Positions 29,923 through 30,919 of a DNA stretch of 54,587 nucleotides are shown piece by piece. The stretch is from a virus. The notes below the pieces were generated by a model. That model was not told the DNA's origin and searched no databases. It was given only the letters and a program-made list of their open reading frames with translations. Both the position numbers and the translations under genes were made by a program. The DNA is taken from UHGV virus genome UHGV-0036483, one strand, 5' to 3'. How positions within the stretch are numbered: position 1 is the first letter of the stretch; every line of letters begins with the position of its first letter.

Positions 29923-29944
29923 CACCCCGCCACGGCGGGGTTTA
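29923..29944. terminator. intrinsic terminator, strongest for the minus-strand cassette
   Basis: CCCCGC-CACG-GCGGGG hairpin; T9 run on minus strand. Confidence 0.6.
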
Positions 29945-30016
29945 TAGTGTCGATAGTAGAATGCATAACAATCCAATGATGATAATAATCATTTCTAGAA
30001 CGTAATGTTCGCACAT
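29942..30016 (-). CDS. micro-ORF, 24-aa hydrophobic peptide (MCEHYVLEMIIIIIGLLCILLSTL)
   Basis: Last ORF before terminator on minus strand; below cutoff. Confidence 0.25.
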   Translation of the reverse strand: MCEHYVLEMIIIIIGLLCILLSTL

Positions 30017-30017
30017 C

Positions 30018-30266
30018 TCATAACGCACCCTTCAAATATGCCAATCCCTTATCGGTGACGAATGAATGGTTAACCTGGTTTTCATCCGTCATGATGATGA
30101 ATAACTTTTCCTGTAGGTATTTCGCTTTCGGGTACAGCGTTAAACAGACCTGGTACAGTATCCCGCGCTCAATCAGCAAATCAATAAATTCGTGTTCATG
30201 ATAACCGACGAGGCGGGCGGCCTGTTTCAACGTGTACACATAATCGCCGTGATTGCGCCGCCCCAT
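30018..30266 (-). CDS. small HTH DNA-binding protein (82 aa)
   Basis: YTLKQAARLVGYHEHEFIDLLIERGIL helix-turn-helix-like segment. Confidence 0.5.
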   Translation of the reverse strand: MGRRNHGDYVYTLKQAARLVGYHEHEFIDLLIERGILYQVCLTLYPKAKYLQEKLFIIMTDENQVNHSFVTDKGLAYLKGAL

Positions 30267-30275
30267 GTTGCCGCC

Positions 30276-30623
30276 TTATTTATCGAACGCAGACAAATTG
30301 TCGATACAGAAATCTTTTGCCGCTTTTTCGTATTCGCGTTTTGCTTGCGGATTGTCTGCCGGGAAACCTTTTGCGTGTATTTCACCAGGGCAAGCCTGAT
30401 CCATAGAGTCGGCAAATTCAACATTGACGTTAAAGTTAATATCTTTCGGATTCATGTTTTCCACCTCATCAATTATCTGCACCGGATTAGCAGCATATTT
30501 CACTGGATGGCCTAAACTACATTCAAGAATCCTTCCTTCTTCCAAAGCTGCCTCTTCGCTATCAAATAATCCGAAACACTCCTTGCAACCACTTAACCAC
30601 ACATCAAGACTATATTTTTGCAT
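30276..30623 (-). CDS. hypothetical protein (115 aa)
   Basis: ORF track; GAGAGG RBS. Confidence 0.5.
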   Translation of the reverse strand: MQKYSLDVWLSGCKECFGLFDSEEAALEEGRILECSLGHPVKYAANPVQIIDEVENMNPKDINFNVNVEFADSMDQACPGEIHAKGFPADNPQAKREYEKAAKDFCIDNLSAFDK

Positions 30624-30635
30624 TTCGTTAACCTC

Positions 30636-30791
30636 TCACTTGACAGGTTCGATCCTGTACCCCAAAACGCGTTCGTCTTCAGCAAGTAAAAGCGCGTCAG
30701 TAAGTGCCTCGCCTTCATCCTTATACAGAGCTACAGTCATTTTTCTGCCATCAGTCAGGAATACCGTCAACCTCCACACCTTATCATCCAT
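30636..30791 (-). CDS. hypothetical protein (51 aa)
   Basis: ORF 30636..30866 trimmed to ATG 30791, which has GGAGG 6 nt upstream. Confidence 0.45.
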   Translation of the reverse strand: MDDKVWRLTVFLTDGRKMTVALYKDEGEALTDALLLAEDERVLGYRIEPVK

Positions 30792-30919
30792 ATCACACCT
30801 CCGCGCCATTTTGTTAACCCTGCTTCCTTTTGAGTACAATATACATATTGTAAAAATCGCAATCAACCGTTTTGGTATGATTTAGCGTGACAGCGATCAC
30901 AAAATGACAAGGTGAAAAA

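Follow-up and report, generated by a model that had tools for sequence, protein, structure and literature searches.

A reversed operon between tail genes M and L

The 54,587-nucleotide (nt) virus genome UHGV-0036483 (the whole stretch analysed here, called the window below) carries a cassette of four open reading frames (ORFs) on the reverse strand between its M-like and L-like tail genes. All four ORFs noticed there in an earlier, sequence-only reading are present at the sizes it gave and encode, in order of transcription, an acidic protein of 51 amino acids (aa) that we call p51, a 115-aa protein, an 82-aa protein consisting of a stand-alone KilAC/ANT domain that resembles a winged helix-turn-helix (HTH), and a single-pass hydrophobic micropeptide of 24 aa (Table 1). 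The intergenic gaps measure 12, 9, and 1 nt, with the ATG of the micro-ORF lying 1 nt past the TGA of the 82-aa gene, and the four genes therefore form one operon. Its own promoter and terminator flank these genes and are both conserved in 51 related loci; on this sequence evidence, the cassette is an autonomous operon with host-type signals that is fixed in its phage group. The earlier description of a self-contained, oppositely oriented unit with a regulator-like HTH-type protein thus holds, while its extent needs adjustment: the ORFs do lie within 29942 to 30866, but the functional unit reaches to about position 30901 when the promoter and an upstream site are included. A 76-aa reading of p51 from a TTG codon, ending at 30866, was rejected because it runs into the −35 box.

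In phage lambda, genes H, M, and L directly adjoin or overlap one another, and the sequence-only reading was right to see the M-L neighborhood as split here. Because lambda M and L abut, the approximately 1.2 kb separating them in the window represent extra DNA, and the same comparison shows that the H-M and M-L junctions both carry such DNA. The G+C content of the cassette is 0.42 to 0.46 compared to 0.50 to 0.56 for the tail genes, and GC skew is inverted within it. Placement between genes that neighbor each other in related phages, a different base composition, and a private promoter and terminator are all features expected of a moron, but presence in some close relatives and absence from others is expected as well, and the unit occurs in all loci that we compared.

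A Megablast search with the segment from 28600 to 31000 matched only phages mEp010, 013, 021, 044, 515, and 554 plus MagusPhagus at 86% to 88% identity, which identifies the window by sequence similarity as a coliphage of the mEp021 group (“mEpimmI”). Phages of this group have been described as non-lambdoid and Nus-dependent (PMC11893012, 2025). DNA of the cassette region was found in prophages of 34 out of 5,426 complete E. coli genomes.

For comparative genomics of the M-L junction, as the sequence-only reading had proposed, we assembled 52 mEp021-type loci (8 annotated ones and 44 from IMG/VR). Gene order is the same in all of them and runs from L through the reversed promoter, p51, the 115-aa gene, an optional gene, the KilAC gene, an optional insert, the micropeptide gene, and the terminator to a 60-aa gene (orf60) and M. 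Only the internal content varies, and the notion of a variable “accessory” insertion has to give way to that of a unit fixed throughout the phage group. Pooled ratios of nonsynonymous to synonymous polymorphism (pN/pS) are 0.30 for p51, 0.19 for the 115-aa protein, 0.13 for the 82-aa protein, and 0.17 for the type A micro-ORF (9 distinct nucleotide versions), with 0.07 to 0.17 for the flanking M, orf60, and L genes. These values indicate that all four ORFs of the cassette, including the micro-ORF, are under purifying selection.

Optional cargo within the cassette of relatives comprises an orphan of 75 to 79 aa between the 115-aa gene and the KilAC gene, a 67-aa orphan, a third type of micropeptide (MDEVIENVLVVAGAIAIVYAFLN) between KilAC and the type B peptide, and, in one locus, a fragment of an HNH_3 endonuclease.

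The position between tail-tip genes M and L and the universal conservation in the group could be taken to mean that the cassette encodes assembly factors or minor virion components on the other strand. We find a tail-related function of this kind hardly credible, given an opposite orientation with its own sigma-70-type promoter and terminator, a lower G+C content, the presence of a KilAC domain and a membrane peptide, the lack of similarity of any cassette protein to a tail family, and the occurrence of the cassette core away from tail genes in other phages (see below).

Table 1. Coordinates of the cassette, its signals, and surrounding features (window positions unless a contig or locus is named)
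Feature	Position	Strand	Remarks
p51 gene	30636-30791	-	first operon gene; ATG 30791-30789, Shine-Dalgarno GGAGGTG
115-aa protein gene	30276-30623	-	
variable N-terminal domain	30456-30623	-	residues 1-56
conserved C-terminal domain	30276-30455	-	residues 57-115
putative internal ribosome-binding site and start	30453-30467	-	GAGGTGG 30467-30461, Met57 ATG 30455-30453
KilAC/ANT-domain protein gene	30018-30266	-	82 aa, winged-HTH-like
type A micropeptide gene	29942-30016	-	24 aa, MCEHYVLEMIIIIIGLLCILLSTL
intrinsic terminator	29915-29941	-	stem-loop 29924-29941, then G, T8 29915-29922
predicted sigma-70-type promoter	30838-30866	-	−35 TTGATT 30866-30861, 17-nt spacer, −10 TATATT 30843-30838 (consensus scan)
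palindrome, candidate operator	30835-30852		8+8, TACAATAT-GT-ATATTGTA, overlaps −10 box
CRP-like site	30886-30901	-	TGTGATCGCTGTCACG, centered at about −62.5 from predicted start
plus-strand promoter-like site	30811-30840	+	TTGTTA-18-TACAAT
L-like tail gene	30920-31624	+	PF05100; K, I, J next downstream
orf60	29734-29916	+	60 aa, directly after M; phrog_3249; conserved in 52/52 loci; pN/pS 0.17
M-like tail gene	29370-29723	+	PF05939
tape measure gene	26284-28632	+	
second reverse cassette	28637-29313	-	between tape measure gene and M
51-aa ORF, second cassette	29045-29200	-	phrog_29810
84-aa ParE-like protein gene, second cassette	28772-29026	-	PF24732, E=4e-11
hairpin, second cassette	28637-28659		called as terminator on both strands
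CRP-like site, second cassette	29298-29313		TGAGA-N6-TCACA, about 103-105 nt upstream of first ATG
compact promoter/C-domain/micropeptide/terminator unit	L053 2462-2792; L054 5961-6381; L055 5401-5749		
optional cargo in relatives	L001 3179-3406; L011 3115-3318; L014 3317-3397; L032 2857-3096		

Cassette proteins and a core shared with unrelated phages

Protein p51 matches phrog_29559 (E=3e-25) and no Pfam, NCBIfam, or PADLOC family, and its homologues are confined to E. coli phages of the mEp021 group. The name “transporter” given to some of them by NCBI (e.g., WP_086611599.1) looks unfounded because p51 is acidic and soluble-looking, with neither a hydrophobic segment nor a family match. The 115-aa protein falls into two domains, of which the N-terminal one (residues 1 to 56) is highly variable with at least six allelic types and a pN/pS of 0.42. 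AlphaFold2 models this domain confidently as a beta-beta-alpha-beta fold (predicted local distance difference test score of about 90), and a profile alignment with hhalign pairs it with p51 over the full length and in register (P=1.2e-4; controls P>0.18). The two are probably paralogues sharing one small fold, while the 51-aa partner of the ParE-like gene in the second cassette was rejected as a paralogue of p51 (P=0.87). Alleles of p51 and of the N-terminal domain show some association that is accounted for by linkage, and the type of micropeptide assorts freely. Sequence searches of the PDB gave no match for p51, and the match of the 115-aa protein to RecA (E=9e-5) was dismissed as an artefact because it amounts to about 3 bits per stretch, with a total inflated by the six tandem RecA copies of a fusion construct.

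The C-terminal domain of the 115-aa protein is under much tighter constraint than the N-terminal one. Residues 70 to 115 are almost invariant, including C78, H83, and C106, and the pN/pS of the C-terminal half is 0.12; AlphaFold2 confidence is low here except for a helix at residues 92 to 113. The family is an orphan, since an exhaustive hidden Markov model search of 1.84 billion representatives returned only 13 matches, 11 of which are members of the family itself, fragments, or partial matches of very short length. The remaining two, both long, were rejected as artefacts caused by repeat proteins, one of them with a chance OmpA-like motif. Five nt upstream of the nearly invariant Met57, the motif GGTGGAA is kept in 22 of 26 distinct 30-nt sequences (GGTGGA in 23), although the codons around this internal Shine-Dalgarno sequence vary. 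Such conservation at the nucleotide level argues for an internal ribosome-binding site and makes a separate 59-aa C-domain product likely. Met57 would thus serve as a second start, yielding a protein like those encoded by the stand-alone C-domain genes found elsewhere.

The micropeptide gene is also well preserved. Type A peptides of other loci differ by synonymous and conservative changes (MCENYVMEVIIIIIGLLCILLSTL, MCDHYILEVIIIIIGLFFILLSTM), the peptide survives nucleotide divergence (e.g., in MCDHYILEVIIIIIGLFFILLSTM), and one locus uses a GTG start. Elsewhere, type A is replaced by type B, a single-pass peptide of 33 to 45 aa (MKIEVLALIIMGLIVFGVHA...) with a pN/pS of 0.23, and type C is added in some loci; across the 52 loci, a micropeptide is missing only from L005. 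Scanning Rfam for antisense or antitoxin RNAs gave nothing near threshold, and folding of the micro-ORF region is not unusual (z=−1.4). The terminator behind the gene is real, but the T9 run ascribed to its minus strand is a T8 (9 T within 10 nt). A terminator scan called this hairpin on the minus strand only, with its plus-strand face failing the criteria, and the mEp021 record has a bidirectional terminator annotated at the same position. Homologous hairpins are found behind the micropeptide gene in all loci and also in unrelated phages of approximately 120 kb.

These latter phages are represented by contigs L053 (121 kb) and L054 (119.6 kb), which share sample 3300045988 as their source; the same phage type is seen in L055, a contig of 8 kb obtained from another sample. 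All three carry a stand-alone C-domain gene of 60 to 64 aa that starts exactly at the equivalent of Met57 and is directly followed by a type B micropeptide gene. The pair of L054 is equipped with a near-consensus promoter of its own (TTGACA, 17 nt, TG-n-TAAGAT), and the loop region of its terminator hairpin (CCCCGCTCCGGCGGGG) is identical to that of locus L007. At the DNA level, the compact unit shares 74% to 84% identity with two stretches that lie apart in the mEp cassette. Gene calling next to the pair gave neither KilAC nor p51 in these contigs; because the pair recurs without them, we regard C-domain and micropeptide as a conserved functional pair. Comparison of the two settings indicates that C-domain, micropeptide, and terminator are the horizontally mobile core of the cassette and that KilAC, p51, and the N-terminal domain are additions of the mEp021 lineage. 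The approximately 120-kb phage type has no match in phage or plasmid collections, and no function was recognized for the genes neighboring the pair. Searching 50,697 phage records by tblastn with the C-domain and KilAC gave only mEp-type phages, distant KilAC proteins, and a single weak C-domain match in Sashavirus BDX09P1.

A soluble protein followed by a membrane peptide, in an order kept in two unrelated phage types, is also what a toxin-antitoxin-like addiction or abortive module would look like, in which the micropeptide would depolarize the membrane in the manner of Ibs or GhoT and the C-domain protein would neutralize it. The extreme hydrophobicity of the 24-aa peptide and its translational coupling to the upstream gene would suit such a toxin, as would the accumulation of additional type C micropeptide genes at the same place in some loci and the ParE-like character of the neighboring cassette. 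We nevertheless judge this possibility decidedly improbable, since there is no match to a toxin-antitoxin family or an Rfam antitoxin RNA, L005 has kept the rest of the operon without a micropeptide, and micropeptide type and N-domain type assort independently.

The KilAC protein, the promoter region, and the second cassette

The 82-aa protein matches Pfam family PF03374 over residues 10 to 79 with 27.5 bits (E=4e-6), above the curated gathering score of 25.3, and its homologues are labeled “phage antirepressor KilAC domain-containing protein” by NCBI. Its structural model resembles winged helices of the MerR/excisionase (Xis) type, while sequence comparison to the PDB gave only matches at E>0.7. 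The PF03374 match is common to KilAC/ANT regulators such as P1 KilA and Ant or Listeria AriS. Unlike in these proteins, the domain stands alone here, with no AntA, Bro-N, pRha, or KilA-N domain in its 82 aa that would give the two-domain architecture of antirepressors, and the similarity is at the domain level only.

The domain raises the question of an induction-control module akin to P22 immI or Listeria AriS, in which KilAC would either act as an antirepressor or inhibit the SOS response of the host, using its own operator and tied via CRP to the carbon status of the host. The ant operon of P22 immI also lies within the late region beside a tail gene, and its first gene is very small. The cassette resembles arc-ant in that an antirepressor-type gene occupies a separate operon inside the late/tail region, and fixation in 52 loci is what one would expect of a life-cycle function. 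In Listeria, overexpression of just the KilAC domain of AriS is sufficient to block the SOS response (PMC9043618). Most mEpimmI phages were reported to be non-UV-inducible, and the core genes that were manually defined for the group include the KilAC-like one (PMC11893012). On the other hand, KilAC lacks the N-terminal partner domain of characterized antirepressors and is far smaller than P22 Ant, its homology to the Listeria domain is confined to the Pfam-domain level, and p51, being acidic with a predicted beta-beta-alpha-beta fold, is not a ribbon-helix-helix protein like Arc or Mnt; there is also no divergent mnt-like gene. Furthermore, the palindrome at the promoter is not a LexA box and is absent elsewhere in the genome, and the pair of C-domain and micropeptide, which travels without KilAC in other phages, would be left unexplained. 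Control of induction therefore appears quite unlikely to us as the function of the cassette.

We compared the regulatory region upstream of p51 (30792 to 30919) across 37 distinct sequences from 51 loci. The promoter, with transcription predicted to start near 30831, has TTGAT and TATATT in every one of them, and its spacer varies in the upstream part. The palindrome that overlaps the −10 box occurs once in the whole window, even with up to 3 mismatches. It was rejected as a LexA box by inspection, as it reads CAA-N10-TTG and not CTG-N10-CAG, and as an operator of the main repressor because no second copy is found in the genome at 3 mismatches. Further upstream, the half-sites GTGA and TCAC of a site resembling those of the cyclic AMP (cAMP) receptor protein CRP are nearly invariant around a varying 6-nt spacer, and TGTGATCGCTGTCACG is as good a CRP site as the one of lac. 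Relative to the predicted start, its position would be near that of class I sites.

Across the window, 8 sites fit TGTGA-N6-TCACA with no more than 1 mismatch, compared to 1.95 expected (about 4-fold enrichment), and the link of the phage to cAMP-CRP may be a wider one. Gaps between plus-strand ORFs contain two perfect CRP-type palindromes, TGTGATGCGGATCACA at 5851 to 5866 and TGTGATCTGTATCACA at 10897 to 10912. A plus-strand promoter-like site facing L overlaps the −10 box of the cassette; a common G-to-T variant of the palindrome changes its TACAAT to TAAAAT. This site could drive L and the tail-tip genes from within the tail operon, in competition with the cassette promoter.

A strong promoter with an inverted repeat over its −10 box, small and variable acidic orphans of several allelic types, and a highly conserved HTH gene downstream of them are likewise the hallmarks of acr-aca operons. 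The cassette might accordingly be read as an anti-defense or host-takeover operon that fires immediately upon infection and whose acidic inhibitors are kept in check by KilAC acting on the palindrome as Aca would. Optional genes of 67 to 79 aa gained and lost inside the operon agree with this idea, as does the core pair behind a near-consensus promoter in a run of small same-strand genes in the approximately 120-kb phages. However, only about half of the loci have a perfect inverted repeat, a terminal membrane micropeptide is atypical of such loci, and the cargo is constant in kind over 52 loci whereas anti-defense loci usually swap theirs. A CRP-assisted promoter would be odd for a gene needed in every infection, and the adjacent look-alike cassette has a ParE-like toxin as is typical of the prophage state. 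The likeness is one of architecture, and an acr-aca-type function seems unlikely on balance.

The second reverse cassette, which separates the tape measure gene from M, has been conserved in almost all related loci. Its 51-aa ORF and the gene for an 84-aa ParE-like protein (28772 to 29200) probably form a toxin-antitoxin pair; this signal belongs to the second cassette, and we rejected it as part of the M-L cassette. A CRP-like site is conserved in 26 of 43 distinct sequences at the same distance as in the M-L cassette, and the two cassettes share the motif ATGTATAT at the −10 region. Their common promoter layout suggests that both are expressed in the prophage state.

A possible role in the lysogen

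We conclude from these features that the M-L cassette is of the moron class, would be transcribed by the host machinery, and probably acts at the membrane in the lysogen. As to its function, we tentatively favor, as a reading that may well prove wrong, a prophage-expressed and membrane-acting module conferring exclusion or defense. We do so because of the precedent of HK97 gp15, the arrangement of taiEcA in phage phi80, and the ParE-like sister cassette with its similar promoter.

HK97 gp15 is a small inner-membrane exclusion protein that is encoded by a moron in the tail operon and expressed from the prophage (PMC3594210). It blocks DNA entry in a manner that depends on the tail of the incoming phage (PMC3594210, reviewing Juhala et al. 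2000 and Cumby et al. 2012). Like the cassette, the gene 15 moron is extra DNA between tail genes with its own promoter and terminator and deviant G+C content, and its product is a small protein of the inner membrane, the location that we predict for the cassette. In contrast to gene 15, the cassette has four genes on the opposite strand, includes a regulator-like protein, and is fixed in its group, and none of its proteins is related in sequence to HK97 gp15/YebO. In phi80, taiEcA lies reversed in the late operon and is expressed in the lysogen, with reduced expression when Q drives late transcription (PMC11364771). Both this locus and the cassette are reversed units interrupting a late operon, and orf60, which has no lambda counterpart and abuts the terminator of the reversed cassette, is placed like atiEcA; a counter-defense role for orf60 analogous to that of atiEcA would be speculation. 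Unlike the cassette products, TaiEcA is a single 26-kDa protein, and the tblastn search with the C-domain and KilAC gave no match in phi80.

Under exclusion or defense as the favored function, the cassette products would act on the host cell and not as parts of the tail. In the lysogen and early in infection, host RNA polymerase would start at about 30831, aided by CRP-cAMP bound at approximately −62, and the KilAC protein or another dedicated dimeric regulator may feed back on the −10 palindrome. The 115-aa gene would yield the full-length protein and, from Met57, the C-domain alone, which could partner with the membrane micropeptide as an inner-membrane effector, while the fast-evolving N-domain and p51 would supply specificity. 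The most likely outcome would be exclusion of, or defense against, incoming phages as with HK97 gp15. During late lytic growth, transcripts of the tail operon probably read through across the cassette, as the gene order would allow, and this antisense transcription may silence it as in a noncontiguous operon.

Several observations weigh against this interpretation. The cassette proteins match no known defense, exclusion, or toxin family: none of the four has a match at E up to 0.1 in PADLOC-DB 2.0 (a library of 2023, with newer defense systems outside its scope) or any match to NCBIfam or to a toxin or antitoxin family of Pfam. Structure prediction, a check put forward in the sequence-only reading, added the MerR/Xis-like and beta-beta-alpha-beta models. 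Of the candidate status assigned to the cassette at the outset as a defense, exclusion, or toxin-antitoxin-like system, the self-contained regulator-bearing unit therefore stands, while a link to a known defense or toxin-antitoxin family does not. Beyond this, fixation in the group, whereas morons usually vary, could hint at a role in the phage life cycle. In the approximately 120-kb phages, the core pair is surrounded by small genes on the same strand of a large phage genome, a setting that would suit a function during infection no less well. The KilAC protein has an approximately neutral charge as counted from its sequence, and its DNA binding is thus not assured. The role of the palindrome as an operator is plausible but not secure, since about half of the loci have one G-to-T change in one arm that is uncompensated. 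Similarly, a 1-bp indel shifts the CRP-like site by one position in about half of the loci, relative to a start that is only predicted. Finally, the text describing the mEpimmI group holds no data on the cassette genes (PMC11893012).

A more specific proposal, which we consider rather doubtful, is that the acidic, Cys-containing C-domain of 59 aa and the single-pass micropeptide constitute an undescribed mobile two-component module at the inner membrane, either an exclusion or abortive effector or a counter-measure. In the mEp021 phages, it would have been equipped with a fused specificity domain, internal initiation, KilAC, and the CRP control shared with the ParE-like cassette.

Prophages of the mEp021 type are common in human-gut E. 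coli, but the group has been described only recently and the operon has had no prior study. It offers a test case for the role of conserved prophage micropeptide genes, for that of stand-alone KilAC domains in phages of gram-negative hosts, and for whether antisense late transcription generally switches off reversed units in late operons. While the cassette would otherwise be one more hypothetical moron, an exclusion or toxin-like pair at its core would extend the catalogue of such functions by a very small mobile system and would explain the linkage to the tail-tip genes.

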